DNA of 64,000 nucleotides from a virus: UHGV virus genome UHGV-1963645; one strand, 5' to 3'. Positions 1,195-58,700 of this stretch are shown here, piece by piece. Position 1 is the first letter of the stretch. Each line of letters starts with the position of its first letter. Under the pieces are notes generated by a model. It saw only the letters and a program-made list of their open reading frames with translations. It was not told the DNA's origin and ran no database searches. The position numbers were made by a program, and so were the translations under genes.

Positions 1195-2679
1195 TCATTC
1201 GTTAAGCCATGCCAGAGCTTCATCAACCTGCGCTTCGTCTTCGACGCTAAGCACTTCATCCTGGGGAACATAATCCGCCAGCATAGCGAAACAATATGTA
1301 TCCCAATGGTCTGGTGAGTGCAGGTTGAGTTTTTTCTTCATATCCTCCTTACTCATCACCTTCCATTGACCTGCGGAGTTAATCCCTACAGGGATTTTCG
1401 ACGCTTCCTCAATAGTTTCATTACCCTTATCCAGTCTCATACGACCAGATTTTACGGCCTCTGCGGCTTGAACGTTGGCATAAGCACGTTTATCAAAGTA
1501 CAGGCTCTTATCTTCACGGCTATGCATCTTTTTACCCCAGCGTATACGCTGTACGGTAATACCATAATACTCGTACATCAGATCCGCCGTTGCTTTACCC
1601 AGGCCATCGCCGTCTATCGCTATGGTGATATTTGGGAATCGCTCAGGATTACATTCTGCGAAAATTTTGGCGGCAAGCTGCGTTTCTGTAACGTCTGTGT
1701 ATTCCAGCATTCGATAGTTGATTACACGGCGTTTATTTCGCTGGCCGGACACCATCATGATATTGATAACGGACTTATCCCGTCCCGTACCACCAGCAAC
1801 GTCCACACATGCAAGCCAGCCCCATCCTTTTGCAATCTTGACTTTCCGCCGCGTTGCACGTTCAACCTCATCACGTCCAAGAAGGAAGCCATCCTGTGAT
1901 TTAGGGAATAGGCCGCGTACCTTAATCATGTACATAGGGTTATCACGCCCGCCGTACTCCGCCAGCTTCATTTTGATAAATGCTGGCGTTACCAACGGTG
2001 ATTCCTCACTGTTAAGCGTGATCGCCGTATAAACGCCATCAGGGTTACCAGGACGCTTGGCCAGTTTATGGTGTGTATCGTAGAAATAGCCGCTTGGGCG
2101 TGTAGGCTGTGACAGCAATAAGATGCGGTTATCCTGTCCGGTAAGAGCACCGGTGATGATACCGAAAGCTCTATCACTGACACCGGAGGCTTCATCGATA
2201 ATATACAGAAGATGATCTGCGTGTTCACCGGCGAGAGCTTCTTCACTTCCCAGACGAAAGCCCTTCGGTACTACAGTCCATACACCTTTACCAGTAATCT
2301 CATAGAAAGCGGTTTCTGTCAGAACAAAATAATCAGCAAGCCATGGGAAACGGCTGGGGGCAGTAGCCCAGTTTATCTTGATGTACTTGAATATACCGGT
2401 CATTACCTGCTGAATTTTGTTCGCAACGATAATGGCACGGGCACCTGGATACATGATTATGAACAACATGATCATGATAGAAGTCATGTCTGATTTCCCG
2501 GTACCGTGACCAGACGAAACAGATGTCTTGCTACCCTGTTCCTGCACAGACTCAATAATCAGATCCTGCTGCCAGGTAGGTGTTTTGCCGAACAAAACAT
2601 CAGCGGCAGCAATCCAGTCATAACGATATAGCGCCACCAGCTCGCGCCAACGTGGATCCGTTACGCAACTTCTGGCCAT
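1195..2679 (-). CDS. pacB: Terminase large subunit PacB-like
   Basis: 494-aa ORF directly downstream of pacA with ATGA overlap; size and position match P1 pacB. Confidence 0.85.
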
Positions 2680-46820: not shown

Positions 46821-47417
46821 ATGGCTGTGATTCCAATGTCGTACTCCCCGGGTACTGTCGCTCGTCGATTTTCGATCCTGGACGGAGTTACCATCCAGGG
46901 TGTGCTTTACCAGGTTATATGGGATTCCAAAACCCCATTTGCAGCTGTAATAGAGGCTGCGCCTTCTGTTATCGATGGTGATATGCGGCATAAGGTTGTC
47001 GCTACTCTTGAACTTCAACGTCGCCCGCAGCTTGAAGGCGTACTGGTAAGGAAGTTCTGGGAGGATAGCGATGTTGCCCAGATTGAAGGTATCGTGGTTG
47101 ATGGAACTGTCCGGGATGTCGGTTTAGCTACTTTTGTTTACGAAACCGTAGCCTCAAAAGCTGGTGTTGTTTTGCTCAGTGATAATGAGCAATACGAAGG
47201 TGGAAAAGCTCTTTGGCAACATATCGCCCGTCGCTCTTCCGAGCTAAAAGTGTTTATCCTCGACACCGATGCCGCTCAGTATTACCCGTTTGACGGCGAA
47301 CGTGTTTGCTATGACGGGGTAAGTATTCCTGAATCCGAGATATGGAGTGAACACCCAGATCGAAGTAAGCATGGGGTTGTTCTGGTCGCTGAATCCATAA
47401 TTGGAAATGCGGCATAG
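46821..47417 (+). CDS. Hypothetical protein
   Basis: Start at ATG after AAGGGGG RBS. Confidence 0.5.
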   Translation: MAVIPMSYSPGTVARRFSILDGVTIQGVLYQVIWDSKTPFAAVIEAAPSVIDGDMRHKVVATLELQRRPQLEGVLVRKFWEDSDVAQIEGIVVDGTVRDVGLATFVYETVASKAGVVLLSDNEQYEGGKALWQHIARRSSELKVFILDTDAAQYYPFDGERVCYDGVSIPESEIWSEHPDRSKHGVVLVAESIIGNAA

Positions 47418-47599
47418 CAGTAAAAAATTCCTTGCTCCTTAAAATGGGAGAGGGTTAATCTACGTATGCTAAGCATAGATATGGCCTCAGATTAATGTTA
47501 AGCGTCTTGCAGGACGCGTAATGTTATCTGGGGCTTTCTTCTATCTGCTTTTCGGGTAATGCCTGAAGCAGATAGCCTCAAGCACCCGCAACGATTGTA

Positions 47600-49734: not shown

Positions 49735-50772
49735 TTAACCTATTGCTACTGGTTTTAACAAACCAGCATCAAGTAGCTTGCGAGTTAACCACTGCTGGCC
49801 TTTACCCGTTAATTGGGGCGTCAGCCGTATCTGGTAGCCATTTTCATCATCCAGCACCACTTCTTTCACCGTGAAATACCCGGCGTTAATGTACTGCTGG
49901 CGCGGTACGTTTTTGCGCGCACCAAAAGCCATGAGAATGCCGTTCTGGCGCAACCATGAGAAAAGGGCGTTTTGCTTAAGTCCAACGACCTTTGCAAAGT
50001 TCCCGATCAGGATTCCATTGGCCACTGATACCCGGTCGGCAAAATCGACTTTAGGGGCTGCGGCCACCAGCTGTTGTTCCAACTGCATTTTCTGTTCTGC
50101 TAACTCGGCAGCCAGGCGTAGGGCTTCTGGTAATGTCTGGGGGATCGATGGGGTAGGGGAGTTTGCCTGCTGTAATTCTTCCAGTTTGTCGATCAGCGAA
50201 CGGCGGACCGCTTTTGACTCGCGCGCGGCGACTCGCAGGGCTTGTTTGAAAGTCATGGTTATGACAAGCATTGATGTTTTGTTCATTTTTTCCACTACAC
50301 TTTTTGTGTAGTGCTCACCATCAAGCTCATCGAGTATTTTTTCGATGAATTTGTTGTTCCGAACCTCTGGTTCCCCACATAACTTACGCGCTTCATTGAC
50401 CATCTTTAACAGTGTCTGGCTGTCGATTGTGTCTCCAGTGTTGGAGATAACATTCACAGCTGGTGATGGCGTAGCTGAAGCAACAGGTGCTGTTTTTTCA
50501 ACATTTAAATTATTACCGGTCATTCTATGTGCCTCCTTTCTCATTTCTGCTGCCACTGTTGCGTAACGTAGACGTCCTTGTTCAATCAAATAATCCCTGA
50601 TCTCGGCTATCAGTAGCCTGTTGATCACAGCCTTATCTGTTCGGGTATAAAAACGTCTGGTTATCATGAAATAGTTAGCAATTGCGCCGGGGATCTCCCG
50701 TGTCGGCATACAGGCAGTATGCAAGGCGATCGCTTCGGCTATTTCATTACGGGTGACGAGAGGTGTTTTCAT
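49735..50772 (-). CDS. ant: Antirepressor Ant (second copy)
   Basis: 345-aa ORF, N-terminus paralogous to the left-edge ant; overlaps icd stop. Confidence 0.75.
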   Translation of the reverse strand: MKTPLVTRNEIAEAIALHTACMPTREIPGAIANYFMITRRFYTRTDKAVINRLLIAEIRDYLIEQGRLRYATVAAEMRKEAHRMTGNNLNVEKTAPVASATPSPAVNVISNTGDTIDSQTLLKMVNEARKLCGEPEVRNNKFIEKILDELDGEHYTKSVVEKMNKTSMLVITMTFKQALRVAARESKAVRRSLIDKLEELQQANSPTPSIPQTLPEALRLAAELAEQKMQLEQQLVAAAPKVDFADRVSVANGILIGNFAKVVGLKQNALFSWLRQNGILMAFGARKNVPRQQYINAGYFTVKEVVLDDENGYQIRLTPQLTGKGQQWLTRKLLDAGLLKPVAIG

Positions 50773-50990
50773 AAACCCCCCTGAACGTCGGCAGAGAAGG
50801 GGAGGCTCCAGTAACTAAGTGAATTGCGCGAGTTAGTTGAAAAACGGGCAGTAAAAATGCAGGGGCCATCAGGCAATTGAGAGCGTGCTTCGTCTTCTGT
50901 TGCTGCGATAACGAAGTGATAGTGGTGTTTTTGGCAGGAGTAAAAGCGCCAGATAAATTCAGGATGAGTAGGGGTAGGGATAGTAGCCAC
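50769..50990 (-). CDS. icd: Icd-like protein (second copy)
   Basis: 73-aa ORF near-identical to 614-835 copy. Confidence 0.65.
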   Translation of the reverse strand: MATIPTPTHPEFIWRFYSCQKHHYHFVIAATEDEARSQLPDGPCIFTARFSTNSRNSLSYWSLPFSADVQGGL

Positions 50991-51054
50991 AATGGCAGCC
51001 TCCTTTTGCTAATTTAAGGAGCTACCGCGTGAGGTTCCAATCTCAATGGCGGTA

Positions 51055-51165
51055 GCACTGACTGGGTTGGAACTACCGGCGCAAAAGGGAACCGGCCTGC
51101 CTTTCGGCAGCCCAGCCAGCACTACCATTGATCTCGGAGCTATGTGCTACGTATGGTTGTGCGAT
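51055..51165 (-). ncRNA. c4: c4-like antisense RNA (second copy, different predicted specificity)
   Basis: Same architecture as 900-1010 with paired substitutions GGTCTCAA->GGTTCCAA and TTGAGACT->TTGGAACT. Confidence 0.4.
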
Positions 51166-51487
51166 GGCATGACACAAAAAAAGACGCTTTTGGCGTCTAT
51201 GTCGCCTTTTGCATTATCCGGGGTTCCAATCCCGGCATCCGTTTTACTAAGATGCCTGTTTAGGATAAACCGAAAATGCATTAGCACGCAAGCAAGTTAA
51301 TGTAGCATATGAAGCTAAAAAAATAAAATAATTAGAGCAACTTGCAACCATGTAAATTATTTCTCTGGTAACTAAAATGTATGAGTTTAATTGATATGGG
51401 TCAAAGATTTTGACCATTGCATGGTGAAACTTTATGCTACAAAATGTTATTTTAAGGCGTTTTATCTGTGGCAGGAGATAGTTAATC

Positions 51488-51838
51488 ATGTCATCTGAAC
51501 ATGTTCGTAAAGGTGTAACAAATGCGAAATTCAATGAAGAGCAATCTAATATTCTCTTTATTGAAATAGGAATTCTGTCAATACTGATAGGTTTAATGTC
51601 TAAATCATGGTGGGCCTTTGGCGGTTCTTTTCTTGGACTGATTTTTAGTTTAAGAATAAAATTTCTAGCAATACCATTGATGATTGTATTTAGCTTAGTA
51701 TGGGGAGCTATTGGCTATAGTATTGGTACTTTGTTTGAATCAACAGCAGCAAGTATTGTTTTGGGGGTAATTGCTTTCCTGAGTGGTTTGGGTACTCATT
51801 TTGCTGCCGTGCAATGGGCAAATGATATTGCAGAATAA
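51488..51838 (+). CDS. Small three-TM membrane protein (AT-rich cassette gene 1)
   Basis: 116-aa ORF with three hydrophobic helices; AGGAG RBS. Confidence 0.5.
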   Translation: MSSEHVRKGVTNAKFNEEQSNILFIEIGILSILIGLMSKSWWAFGGSFLGLIFSLRIKFLAIPLMIVFSLVWGAIGYSIGTLFESTAASIVLGVIAFLSGLGTHFAAVQWANDIAE

Positions 51839-51860
51839 TTACAGATAAGAAGCGAAAAGA

Positions 51861-52337
51861 ATGAATATGAGATGGTTTTTATTATTTGTATCGTTAGTTT
51901 CAGCAGGAACATTTGCAAAAATTGATCCTCTACAATGGAATGTAATTGAAGAGAGAGGGGGGAGAGAATATACAATCCATAATCATAATGGTGATAAGAT
52001 AAGTTTTTTATGTGATATGGGATTCATGTATGGTTCACCAGATAGTGCAGGTAGTTTAGGCTTGTTGCTAAGTTCGTCGAATAATAAAAAAGAGTATAAT
52101 GCTGACAAGAATAAAATAGTATTAACTATAGATGGTGATCAATATCCTTTTAGCAATCTTGGATCAATGGTTGGAGATTCTTGGTGGTATGCCTTTTGGC
52201 AAGATGCAGCAGATTCAAATGCTAATATGATTGATGCTTATGTTGATAATGAAAAAATTGCTACATTCCCTCTTTCTGGGCTAAGTAAGTTGTATCAACA
52301 AGCCAAAATGGATGGATGTATTAAACGAGGCAAATGA
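51861..52337 (+). CDS. Secreted/periplasmic protein (AT-rich cassette gene 2)
   Basis: Signal peptide MNMRWFLLFVSLVSAGTFA; 158 aa. Confidence 0.5.
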   Translation: MNMRWFLLFVSLVSAGTFAKIDPLQWNVIEERGGREYTIHNHNGDKISFLCDMGFMYGSPDSAGSLGLLLSSSNNKKEYNADKNKIVLTIDGDQYPFSNLGSMVGDSWWYAFWQDAADSNANMIDAYVDNEKIATFPLSGLSKLYQQAKMDGCIKRGK

Positions 52338-52411
52338 TCTTTCTGTGTTAAAGATTAACGCAATCAATAAAACATTGGTTGCGTAATATTCTATTATAGA
52401 AATGGAATAAT

Positions 52412-53446
52412 ATGACAAAAATTACTAATTCTAATGAGTTGAAGTTGCTGTATAAACAGTCAGTGCTCATTCCATCATACAAAGATCACGTAGCGATCTT
52501 GCAAAAACAATTAGGAATAGAAAAACATTCTTTTCAAAATATGCCAAGATTGAATAGACAAGCTGTAATTAGTAACTCTCTTCGAAAACAATTGGCTAGT
52601 ATACCGAACTTGGCTGGAATAGGCAGCAAGTATCGTGAACATATCGCGATTTTACAGAAACAGACTCAGGCTCTTTTCCCTCATGATGCAAATAGATATA
52701 TTCAAATGCTAAGGAAACAGGCCGAAATAGCTATGCCATTACGAAAACAGCTTGAGGTGCTTAATAAGCAAGCTGGTTTAAATAACATGCAAGCGATACT
52801 TAAAGAATTACAACAAAGTGCAAGTTATAAAATAGATGTAAGCCAAGACATAAAGAAAGTACTAGATCACTATGCTAGAACAAGAAATGCTTCATTACAT
52901 CAAATAATAGAGCAGGGGATTTCATCTATTGCGCAGGCTTATGCTGAAGGTGCTACTGAAACATCACACACCAAAAGTAATGTTCAAAATAAAGGATTAA
53001 ATAAACCTAGCTCAAAGTTTGTTGATTCATTTAAAGAGCTTCCTTATCCACTGCAATGGTTACTAATGGTTATATTTTCTCAAGTTGTGTTTGGTGCTTT
53101 TATTGATTACGGAAAAGAGAAAACCTTGCTGGGAATACACAAGGCAGAATCATATTTTATATCTCTGTTTGAGGATAAACCAATATCAAAACAACAATTA
53201 ATTAAAGAAAACAAAGAAATTAGTTGGGAAGATCTCAATGGTTTTCGTTTTATAACTGGTGAGAACGTAAGATTACACGTCAGTCCTTCTATAAATAGTG
53301 AGGTGATTGAATGCATTGGCAAAAATACTATAGTGGCTGTTTTAGATAAAAAAGATCGCCAATGGCTTTTCGTGCAGGTTAAATCAGGGGACGAGTTTAT
53401 TACTGGATGGATTACACGAACATACACAAAGCCTCTTAAGGCTTGA
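52412..53446 (+). CDS. Membrane-anchored protein with C-terminal SH3-like domain (AT-rich cassette gene 3)
   Basis: Internal TM (WLLMVIFSQVVFGAFIDY), N-terminal repeats (HVAILQKQ/HIAILQKQ), C-terminal SH3b-like segment. Confidence 0.5.
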   Translation: MTKITNSNELKLLYKQSVLIPSYKDHVAILQKQLGIEKHSFQNMPRLNRQAVISNSLRKQLASIPNLAGIGSKYREHIAILQKQTQALFPHDANRYIQMLRKQAEIAMPLRKQLEVLNKQAGLNNMQAILKELQQSASYKIDVSQDIKKVLDHYARTRNASLHQIIEQGISSIAQAYAEGATETSHTKSNVQNKGLNKPSSKFVDSFKELPYPLQWLLMVIFSQVVFGAFIDYGKEKTLLGIHKAESYFISLFEDKPISKQQLIKENKEISWEDLNGFRFITGENVRLHVSPSINSEVIECIGKNTIVAVLDKKDRQWLFVQVKSGDEFITGWITRTYTKPLKA

Positions 53447-53575
53447 ATTTTATCACCGTATCTTGGGGCTGGGTGTTGATGACGATGTGCTACTTGAAGT
53501 ACTTGGGTTTTTTAACGCAGCATCTGAAATGTGTAGACTGACCGGTAACAAATGACAACTCGTAGAATCGGGTAA

Positions 53576-54166
<591 letters not shown>

Positions 54167-55765: not shown

Positions 55766-58700
55766 ATGGAAAGAAAAAACGCCAACATTGACGATGTGAT
55801 AAGGACGGTTGAAACCGCCAGCGCAAAAGAGCTGGAAGAGCTTGCAGGTATCCGGGAAGCTGTTGAAGATTTGAAAGGGGGACGCGTTGCAACTGTTGAT
55901 CCTGTCTCTCGCAGTGTGTCGGCATTAAATCGCACAATCGAAAATTCCCGGCCAGACTTTGTGGCCAATGCGCCATCAGTGGACCCTATTGTTGAGGCAA
56001 TGAAACGGCTTAATTTAGGGGACGTTTCTCGTGTAGTTCAGGAGGATGTTGCTCTACAGGAACCGCAGGCCAAATCAACTACGCGAAAGGGTAAAAAACG
56101 ACGCAAGAAGGCTATAACAGAAGATGTAAAGGCGCAACGGACCGAAGCAGCCGAACACGCTCGCGAAATGTTCGGTCAAAAAGGCGGTGCGCAAAAAAGC
56201 CAAAACCAACGCGATGCGCGTGGTCGTTTTATTGGAAAGCCAGGGAGTAAGGCCGCAGCGGAAGATGCCCGTGCTGAACGTGCTGAAAAGGCCAGGCGCA
56301 AAGAGGATGATGAGCGTCTAAATGCTGAATCAGGTTTATTAAAAAAACTGTCAAAAGTAGCTGAAGGCATAGGTAACCCTTCAGAGACTCGTGCCGTCGA
56401 TGCGTTAGGTTATGCTGTTGCTGGTCCATTGTGGGCAGCAGGGAAGGAGCTTGGCGGGATATCAAAAGAAGTTGGTGGATCGCTTAATGGTGCCAGAAAG
56501 TCTATTGCCGATGTGATTCGTGGCAATGACGATAACAGCCGTAGAAAAGGTTTTTTTAGGCGTAAATCGCAAAATAGTGCCGATGTCGTTCAGGTTAACA
56601 CCCAAAAACGGACGGTTCAGGAACTTCAGGAGCAGACCAGCGAAATTAAAGAGGGCAATGACAAGATTCTCAGCGCCCTTGATCAGATAGCCAAAAACAC
56701 CGGGAAAAAGAAGGGCGGCTTGCTGTCTAAACTATTTAGCCTGTTAGGGAAGGGGGCCGGTGGCGTCGCGTCGTTGTTAATGGGGCGTGGCATGCTGAAA
56801 AAAGCTGGAGCACTCGCTTTTGGCGCTCTGGGGGCAAAGAGACTCGTAGGAATGCTACGCGGTGGGGGCAAGAAGACTCTCGCCCATGAAGGCGGAGATT
56901 TGGCTGCCCGGGCAGCAGGTAAACTTGGATTAAAGGCAGTTGGTAAAGGGGCGTTACGCGCAATTCCCCTAGTCGGCACAGTGGCTGGAGGTATTTATGA
57001 TGCGGTAACCGGTTGGAATGATACAGAAGCGCAACGTCGAGCGTTTGGGCTTAAATCAGGACAAGATCCATCATTCCAGCAAAAAGCCGCTTATACGTTA
57101 GCCAATGTTCTTGATTTGGGGGGACTGGTATCTGGTATTAGCAGTGCTATTGGTGATGTTCTCAAATCACTTGGATTTGAGGATATCGGCAATATGTTGC
57201 AATCATTTTCGACGGAAAGTATTGCCCAGGCCATTGATAGCGGGGTTACCAACTTAGAAACATATATTTCTAACCTTGGCGACACCATTTCTACCAAGTT
57301 CGATGATTACACAGCAAAGATTGGTGATGCTGTTTCAGCATGGTTTAGCGATACATCTAATAAGTTGCTTGAAAAGCTGGATGCCATCAAAGACTTCTTT
57401 ACTGTCGATAACCTGAAACAGGTTTTCAGTGATGCAATTGATAGTGCAATTGACTTCATTAAGAACCCAGGGAAACACATTAAAGAGGCGGCTGGTAATA
57501 TTTGGGATGGGGTTAAAAATTTACCCGGTAAAGCATTAGATGCAGCGGTTGATGCCGTTAAAAATACCCCTGCGGCAATGATTGTATCAAAAATACCCAA
57601 TCCGATCGGCGAGGCTAATGCAAAAGAAATCACTCCAGAGTTAAAAGCTCCGGTTAATAGCCACCAGGAGACATCTGATTCTAAAACTGAATCCGATGCT
57701 AAACAGACTAATATTGCTACCCGCGTGATAAATGCGGCACTGGACACGGCGAAAGATAGCAATAAAACAGTTAAAGAAACTGCCAATCAGATTATCAATG
57801 CAAATGCCGTAGAAATGGGCAATAGCGCGGTGCGGAAAATTGATTCAGCTATTGGACAAAATAGCTCGTCATCATCGTCGCGTAATACCACCGGCACTGG
57901 GAATGACATTCAGAAAGCTGCTGATACCTACAATAATGGCAACTTAGATGTAAAAGTCGGAAGCCTTGGCGCTGAAGGTAAGGCAAATCTCGATAAGTTA
58001 GCTCCGTATTTTGCTGAACTAGAGAATAAATATGGTCTTCCTGAAGGCACTCTTTACGCGATTGCTGCAACTGAATCAGGAGGGGATCCTAACGCAAAGT
58101 CTCCGCTTACAAGATCACCAGATGGAAAGTTAAGTGGTGGCGCACTCGGGATGTTCCAGTTTACGCGCGTTGCTCGTGAGGAAACTGGATTATCCCGGGA
58201 AGATTCTTTTAATCCGGAAAAATCGGCAGAAGCTGCGGCTCTTCTCATGAGCAAGTATCTGAAGCAAGCCAATGGAGACTTAAACGAGGCCATCACTGCA
58301 TATAACGCTGGGTTTGGCACTATTAATAAGTGGAAAAAAGGCACCGGTGACTTATCGAAGGAAAACCGTGAGTACGCGATCAAGGTCAATACTCATCGTG
58401 CTCGCTATTTAGGTGGTGAAATCTATACACCTGGGGCAGGAGCACAGGGTGGGGCGCAATATGGAGTGAGGGAACCACTACCTGATAACGCCGTTATCGA
58501 TCAGTCTACTGGTCTGGCGTTTACCCCTGGTGATAGCCCGTTTGAGAAAGGCGGTTTGGTAGACAAAATCGGCAATGCTGTTGGCGTTAACGATCTGGTC
58601 AACAAATTCATGAATGGCCGGGGTATGCGTCGGGAAGTCGTTCAGGGAACGCTCGAAGAACGTGCACGAGGGAAGGGGACCGCAACAGCAGCTGGCAATG

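Follow-up and report, generated by a model that had tools for sequence, protein, structure and literature searches.

What fills the AT-rich gap between the second immunity module and the tail genes of the virus genome UHGV-1963645, and what might it do for a cell that carries it? We analyzed a stretch of 64,000 nucleotides from this genome (hereafter, the window), which belongs to a P1-like phage-plasmid, and in which three plus-strand genes, here called orfA, orfB and orfC, occupy an island of low GC content. The initial annotation took them for a horizontally acquired accessory module beside the immI and tail genes, and horizontal exchange is supported by the comparisons below: the cassette is almost certainly an allele of the slot that holds the sim genes in phage P1, built of exchangeable modules that encode envelope proteins.

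The GC content of positions 51301-53450 is 0.338, against a mean of 0.476 for the 64-kb window (standard deviation 0.027, measured in windows of 2150 bp), and this is the lowest of any 2150-bp window across the 64 kb. The flanks of the island stand at 0.473 and 0.475, and a sliding-window profile, at approximately 0.47-0.50 ahead of the island, drops to 0.32-0.37 from about 51,200 to about 53,500 and then recovers. What had been judged by eye as one third GC against about half elsewhere therefore comes to 33.8% against 47.6% by calculation. The three predicted genes were also borne out by the list of open reading frames (ORFs). orfA (51488..51838; phrog_15014) encodes a predicted small inner-membrane protein of 116 amino acids (aa), orfB (51861..52337; phrog_3429) a predicted secreted, periplasmic protein of 158 aa in the YfjT family (PF27224), and orfC (52412..53446; phrog_7086) a predicted bitopic protein of 344 aa; the ORF list was combined with a hydropathy scan for orfA, with family matches for orfB, and with hydropathy and Pfam for orfC.

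The annotated P1 record has simA, simB and simC at the same position, directed away from c4-icd-ant (immI) and toward LPsit-pmgC-tub-pmgB-sit. The layout of the window is the same, with minus-strand homologs of Icd and Ant to the left and pmgC, tub, pmgB and sit to the right. We located the boundaries of the slot in a five-way alignment of the window, P1, P7 and two related elements, L010 and L003. The five sequences diverge immediately to the right of a C1 repressor operator, the equivalent of Oc4/Op51 (51325..51341, minus strand), which reads GTTGCTCTAATTATTTT and has three mismatches to the consensus ATTGCTCTAATAAATTT; its ATTAGAGCA core is the control-region block common to all five and aligns with the annotated Oc4 of P1. 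They converge again at the LPsit late-promoter block upstream of pmgC (53548..53599, plus strand), and megablast homology to P1 and P7 likewise begins at window positions 53547-53548, overlapping the annotated LPsit. Because divergence starts at the operator and convergence at LPsit, the cassette fills the sim slot exactly. A 2.4-kb query (51200-53600) is 100% identical to many Escherichia coli plasmids of approximately 95-100 kb, such as pSBF22b; P1 and P7 match it over no more than its final 53 bp, which lie where LPsit joins pmgC. The sim region of P1 has a GC content of 0.336, like that of the cassette, against 0.45-0.48 for the backbone. The initial annotation had considered the P1 sim genes and found no obvious match in sizes or orientation; the sizes do differ, but the orientation agrees, since both sets of genes run away from c4 and in the direction of pmgC, with Oc4 and LPsit as their limits.

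The proteins themselves are not Sim homologs. BLASTP of the orfA, orfB and orfC products against SimA, SimB and SimC gave nothing below E = 0.7, and in hhalign the orfB family scored probabilities below 1% with both SimB and SimC, the alignment being confined to the signal peptides. The PHROG families of the cassette proteins also differ from those of the Sim proteins, and all of these families are function-unassigned. Beyond a borderline SH3_3 domain in orfC, searches of Pfam, NCBIfam, PADLOC and PHROGs with the three proteins returned no named family, the copy of Pfam scanned being one that lacks the PF27224 model.

The low GC content and the hypervariability of the slot have been published before: of the eight variable regions that Wang et al. 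list for P1-like phage-plasmids, number 4 is simC-simB-simA, and its low GC content is noted there (PMC9603915), and Venturini et al. list sim with low-GC loci of recent acquisition (PMC6906374). We found at least seven configurations of the slot, and every product in them is predicted to carry a signal peptide, a lipobox or transmembrane (TM) segments. P1 has SimA, SimB and SimC, whose translations start with hydrophobic signal-like sequences, and P7 has upf50.5, a lipoprotein with sub-threshold similarity to TraT, together with the DUF5384 protein upf50.0. The window combines orfA with a YfjT-like gene (orfB) and an SH3 gene (orfC), while L003 has orfA, a YfjT-like gene and a convergent DUF4760 gene on the reverse strand. 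A longer relative of SimA, here SimA-long, accompanies a YfjT-like and an SH3 gene in L010 and L015, a YfjT-like gene only in pO111_2 (L013) and L014, and both orfA and a YfjT-like gene in the Salmonella elements L020 and L021. Aligning the orfB family to P7 upf50.0 with hhalign matched the signal peptide and nothing else, and a PADLOC search with the alternative slot proteins gave no match at E <= 0.01.

In PLSDB, 403 plasmids match the 51200-53600 query, which includes both slot junctions. Counted by family, YfjT is present in 182 plasmids, orfC in 64 and orfA in 53; it is a YfjT-family gene, present in five of the configurations, and not sim that turns up most often in the slot. P1 simA itself appears to record an exchange. 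Over 41 residues its 52-aa product (L001 5560-5718) shares 93% identity with the N-terminus of SimA-long, a secreted protein of 163-222 aa (phrog_3933) that is intact in L013 (2777-3424), L010 (3928-4419) and L021 (4234-4902), and the P1 gene thus has the look of a truncated remnant that cassette exchange left behind, not of a complete accessory gene.

The allele in the window is a mosaic of two modules, a hairpin-closed orfA-orfB pair and orfC. All three genes of the cassette first proposed are present, but they do not form one indivisible unit, because the pair and orfC are separable. Between orfB and orfC lies a terminator-like hairpin with an 11-bp stem (52358..52384, plus strand), which is kept in L003 with compensatory changes in the stem, and the homology between the window and L003 stops just past it; it is probably a weak or bidirectional terminator and the junction of the modules. 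The third position of the slot is held by orfC, by the reverse-strand DUF4760 gene, or by nothing. Distant homologs of orfC stand alone in other elements of approximately 90-100 kb, adjoining umuDC-like genes in Yersinia, and orfA is solitary in several contexts. Even within the pair the two genes differ in conservation: compared with the window, a Salmonella element has an orfA of 72% identity, but the YfjT partner there shares only 28% identity with orfB.

Between the window and L003, the synonymous divergence (dS) is 0.11 in orfA and 0.20 in orfB, against 0.007 in the adjacent pmgC and tub, which indicates that old, selected alleles have moved between near-identical, recent backbones. The ratio of nonsynonymous to synonymous divergence (dN/dS) is 0.07 for orfA and 0.22 for orfB, and both genes are under purifying selection. 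Lineages of YfjT in the slot share only 27-38% identity with one another, and this divergence, together with the variable number of repeats in orfC, amounts to rapid diversification. The same measurements dispose of the idea that the island is decaying junk DNA, or a set of chance ORFs in AT-rich sequence, as its low GC content and its annotation with hypothetical proteins only might suggest. That idea is effectively refuted by the purifying selection and by the existence of a conserved family for each gene; with a confident fold for orfB and identical copies of the cassette in dozens of plasmids that differ in host and country as well, we find it scarcely credible.

The first gene, orfA, has an AGGAG ribosome-binding site 8-9 nt upstream of its ATG. 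Its glycine-rich product had been described as having three TM helices, but the hydropathy scan gives four hydrophobic segments and about four TM helices. A sequence search of the PDB gave no match. Relatives of orfA occur in Salmonella P1-like elements, in Vibrio, in metagenome contigs and in an Anoxybacillus phage-plasmid, and several of them adjoin recombinase or integrase genes. The family crosses phyla, the Firmicute member being encoded on the Anoxybacillus plasmid pBstUI51 (L016 4995-5345; 45% identity), with other loci at L005, L017 and L018; at L018 the relative is preceded by a DUF4431 protein weakly similar to SimA-long (27% identity, E 2e-4).

A small, glycine-rich protein with several TM helices might act as a toxin. 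In an abortive-infection system, the sensing of infection would fall to orfB or to the orfC SH3 domain, as a periplasmic or membrane sensor, and orfA would depolarize the membrane, killing the cell; the homolog in Vibrio lies downstream of a gene for an AAA_15/AAA_21 ATPase, and such domains are frequent in defence islands. We consider this quite improbable, as none of the proteins matches PADLOC or contains a recognizable effector or enzymatic domain, orfA is found on its own in several contexts, and the free reassortment of modules would be poorly tolerated by a toxin and its control partner.

The second gene, orfB, had been called a signal-peptide protein, and its product does start with a signal-like sequence, MNMRWFLLFVSLVSAGTFA, which ends in VSAGTFA before a K. 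It has two conserved cysteines; in the alignment of the YfjT family C51 is invariant and C153 nearly so, Trp26 and Trp109 are conserved, and full-length members of approximately 147-166 aa have a hydrophobic N-terminus or signal peptide. The assignment to PF27224, which is named YfjT, comes from a precomputed match on a 98%-identical cluster representative (P0049). orfB matches phrog_3429 at E 5.9e-71, and YfjT of E. coli K-12 matches the same PHROG at 6.9e-15; the two proteins are 26% identical (BLASTP E about 1e-6). An exhaustive HMMER search with orfB recovered only about 20 representative clusters, and three long, multi-repeat ones (P0072, P0077 and P0083) were discarded as spurious matches to repeat proteins. 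A comparison with IalB-like periplasmic proteins (PF06776) revealed no clear structural or sequence similarity, and a literature search found no paper on the function of YfjT or on this cassette.

A genome-wide scan of the context of YfjT relatives gave two loci only. One of these (L022; JAFAFU010000002.1, 2.9 kb, from a metagenome-assembled genome labeled 'Bacillota bacterium') is a fragment of P1-like type whose place in a Firmicute genome is probably a binning error: its pmgC and tub have 98% amino acid identity to those of the window, and its YfjT-like gene is 99% identical to that of pO111_2.

The setting of YfjT in E. coli K-12, in the cryptic prophage CP4-57 beside YpjK and the lipoprotein YfjS, would suit genes that serve the host. 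On this account, the main rival to phage exclusion, the cassette would be cargo for lysogenic conversion, conferring immunity to toxins such as colicins or effectors of the type VI secretion system (T6SS), tolerance of serum or stress, or an altered surface. An Enterobacter chromosome has a pair of small-membrane-protein and YfjT-like genes near an ORF that, judged by eye from its translation, is Hcp-like and would point to a T6SS, but this proximity is a single locus. The size and 4-TM layout of orfA are like those of the immunity proteins of pore-forming colicins, but no cassette protein has a Pfam match to an immunity or resistance family. The lipoprotein of the P7 slot is weakly like TraT, according to its Pfam entry a complement-resistance protein, and relatives of orfA are spread over diverse mobile elements and are also present on one chromosome-like contig that has no phage genes close by. 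Since the sole experimentally characterized occupant of the slot is nevertheless a phage-exclusion gene, we regard conversion cargo as somewhat unlikely.

The third gene, orfC, fits its first description as a protein of 344 aa with N-terminal repeats, one TM helix and an SH3-like C-terminus. The N-terminal half (residues 1 to about 210) consists of helical repeats with five [LI][QRK]KQ motifs, and is followed by one hydrophobic helix at approximately 212-234, a linker, and a putative SH3_3 domain at approximately 278-338. The Pfam model SH3_3 (PF08239) matches residues 285-338 with E 1.1e-5 and 26.0 bits, one bit below the gathering score of 27, and a precomputed PF08239 match is present in most clusters of orfC homologs; the predicted structure, a low-confidence model, has six beta-strands at 278-334. 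The homologs form 48 clusters of 235-481 aa, some of them partial, with full-length proteins of approximately 318-481 aa, all from mobile elements of Enterobacterales. Their length varies in the N-terminal repeats, and the half that contains the TM helix, the linker and the SH3 domain is almost invariant. Matches to the family in a PDB profile search (an HP0242 chimera; JetA at E 0.3) were compositional matches to helical repeats only and were rejected. As judged from its sequence, orfC is most probably anchored in the inner membrane with its SH3 domain facing the periplasm, the sole argument for this topology being that the 210-residue N-terminal domain has no signal peptide.

SH3_3 domains are found in endolysins, there is a weak match to the amidase family phrog_1794 (E 0.009), and the cassette lies directly upstream of LPsit-pmgC-tub-pmgB-sit, so one might ask whether the products are accessories of the lytic cycle, involved in the timing of lysis, the handling of the cell wall, or the assembly of the tail or injection apparatus. 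The cassette is, however, insulated from the tail operon by a terminator-like hairpin at the orfC stop codon (53429..53444, plus strand; AAGCCTCTTAAGGCTT then GAATTTTATC), which is present in L010 too, and by LPsit as a late promoter separate from it. The content of the slot is non-homologous among otherwise near-identical phages, some elements are without orfC, and no orfC homolog was found in 50,697 deposited phage genomes. The sim genes are, moreover, dispensable for the lytic growth of P1 (PMC10695390), and we consider a lytic role highly unlikely.

The 7-bp inverted repeat reported in the promoter region of the cassette at 51401-51417 exists, though two bases further left (51399..51415; GGTCAAAgatTTTGACC), and consists of two back-to-back TTGACC hexamers resembling -35 elements. 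It is not beyond chance: the island contains one perfect 7-bp inverted repeat against 1.69 +/- 1.55 in shuffled sequences, and an intergenic region of 148 bp would contain one or more with a probability of about 10%. In L003 the right arm, TTTGACC, is kept but the left one is broken (GATCAAAGACTTTGACC). We therefore rejected it as a regulatory palindrome. Its right arm supplies the -35 hexamer of a candidate sigma-70 promoter for orfA-orfB (51410..51438, plus strand; TTGACC, a 17-bp spacer and TATGCT), and the left arm is the same hexamer on the opposite strand. Promoter-like sites are no commoner in this region than in shuffles, so that the candidate is only a lead. As it lies approximately 70 bp to the right of the C1 operator and does not overlap it, direct repression by C1 is not obvious. 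For orfC, neither a scan nor inspection by eye revealed a dedicated promoter in 52338-52411, where the best hexamers are 11 nt apart, and orfC therefore probably depends on read-through of the hairpin that precedes it.

In our reading, recombination has replaced simABC of P1 with non-homologous genes for envelope proteins, in a slot of approximately 2.2 kb that runs from the C1-controlled c4/immI promoter region to LPsit. In the lysogen, a promoter lying outside the C1 operator would probably drive the genes, and their products would most likely act at the envelope, protecting the lysogen as Sim does; by analogy, periplasmic and inner-membrane products may interfere with the penetration of the tail tip or with the transfer of DNA by an incoming phage. 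According to PMC8546580, which cites Devlin 1982 and Kliem and Dreiseikelmann 1989, Sim causes superinfection exclusion and is thought to block the DNA of the superinfecting phage from reaching the cytoplasm. Since sim is the one experimentally characterized occupant, the slot position that the cassette shares with it, which is the only basis for the proposal, suggests superinfection exclusion as a possible function, a guess that the initial annotation had reasonably made, and we adopt it tentatively.

Several points count against an exclusion function. Position is a weak argument, since unrelated cargo can also find its way into a hot-spot, the DUF4760 gene being an example, and the reassortment of modules makes a single concerted mechanism of three proteins unlikely. 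PADLOC, NCBIfam and PHROGs gave no link between the cassette proteins and a known exclusion or defence protein; in PADLOC-DB v2, which contains no SimC and so does not cover the Sim-type class, none of the three had a match at E <= 1. The AlphaFold2 model of orfC, built with 31 homologs, is poor (predicted local distance difference test score, pLDDT, 43.6), too poor for a fold search, and the positive residues flanking its TM helix (K+R 2.4 versus 1.6) slightly favor a cytoplasmic location of the C-terminal side. The candidate promoter agrees with the consensus at only 9 of 12 positions. Finally, H-NS can silence AT-rich DNA of this kind and may do so here.

Superinfection exclusion could also be framed more broadly, in a form that we judge unlikely. 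YfjT-family proteins and their interchangeable partners (orfA, SimA-long and orfC) would then be unrecognized but widespread exclusion modules, orfC would be a periplasmic SH3 'gate', anchored in the membrane, against tail penetration mediated by the Sit transglycosylase, and the divergence of YfjT and of the orfC repeats would reflect an arms race among P1-like phages.

Other features of the slot and of the window deserve mention in their own right. The Sit transglycosylase, or tape-measure protein, differs in length among the elements compared: it has approximately 1239-1241 aa in the orfA-orfB carriers L003 and L002, the latter identical to the window across 51200-53600 (sit begins at 55766 in the window), and 1140 aa in P1, 1130 aa in P7 and pO111_2, and 1124 aa in L010 and L015. 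This could be simple linkage, or a functional coupling of slot type with the injection machinery. In P7, the RefSeq product name of upf50.5 (L004 2408-2929) is 'DNA methyltransferase', yet the same record annotates an outer-membrane lipoprotein with a signal peptide; the protein has a glycine-zipper region besides its weak similarity to TraT, and 'DNA methyltransferase' is the label of phrog_1277, so the name looks like an annotation error.

To the left of the cassette, the divergent immI operon encodes a C4 antisense RNA (51045..51132, minus strand; Rfam RF01695, 76.7 bits), preceded by an isrK-like RNA (51177..51255, minus strand; RF01394, 58.3 bits), both above the gathering score. The window contains two such modules of C4 RNA, isrK-like RNA and C1 operator, at 890-1191 and 51045-51341, each adjoining an Icd-like ORF (614-835 and 50769-50990), whereas P1 has one immI. 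The first has no divergent cassette; it abuts a 494-aa ORF (1195-2679, minus strand) and then a 397-aa ORF, which by eye look like the packaging genes pacB and pacA. A sok antitoxin RNA at 47413-47587 (minus strand; RF01794, 97 bits) implies a hok/sok module for post-segregational killing, in a region that from gene order presumably corresponds to rlfA/rlfB of P1, next to repL.

In E. coli from clinical and animal sources, P1-like phage-plasmids are frequent, and mcr-1 and blaCTX-M are among the resistance genes that they carry. Which related phages and phage-plasmids gain entry to a lysogen is probably determined by what the sim slot contains, with consequences for their spread and for P1-based tools of transduction. 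No new principle emerges, as the hot-spot and its low GC content were published, the function is proposed by analogy, and the allele is non-homologous to sim and uncharacterized. What is new here is that the slot corresponds exactly to that of sim, that the YfjT family dominates in it, and that the cassette is modular in its anatomy, with separable modules defined for cloning. The K-12 y-ome gene yfjT also gains a functional hypothesis that can be tested.

Among known systems, the Imm and Sp proteins of T4, gp15 of HK97, SieA of P22, Sie2009 of lactococcal phages and Ltp of TP-J34 are small inner-membrane, periplasmic or lipoprotein products that block injection and are expressed from prophages beside their immunity regions; the likeness of the cassette to them is one of analogy only, with no homology to proteins of known function in PHROGs or Pfam. 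The ypjK-yfjS-yfjT genes of CP4-57 resemble the cassette in having a gene for a small membrane protein upstream of a YfjT-family gene in a mobile element, but YpjK is unrelated to orfA, the lipoprotein YfjS has no counterpart in the cassette, and the genes have a GC content of 0.51 and are not AT-rich. The upf50.5 and upf50.0 genes occupy the same slot in a sister phage and likewise encode exported envelope proteins of unassigned function, although there are only two of them and their sequences are unrelated to the cassette. P1 simABC differs in the sizes of its products (52, 111 and 264 aa, against 116, 158 and 344 aa in the cassette), and SimC, reportedly described by Maillou and Dreiseikelmann in 1990 as a processed, secreted protein, is unlike orfA and orfC, which are predicted to be membrane-integral. 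In other respects simABC and the cassette are alike: each is an accessory, exchangeable set of three co-directional genes with export or membrane signals, and they share the slot, its orientation, its boundaries from Oc4 to LPsit and a GC content of approximately 34%.

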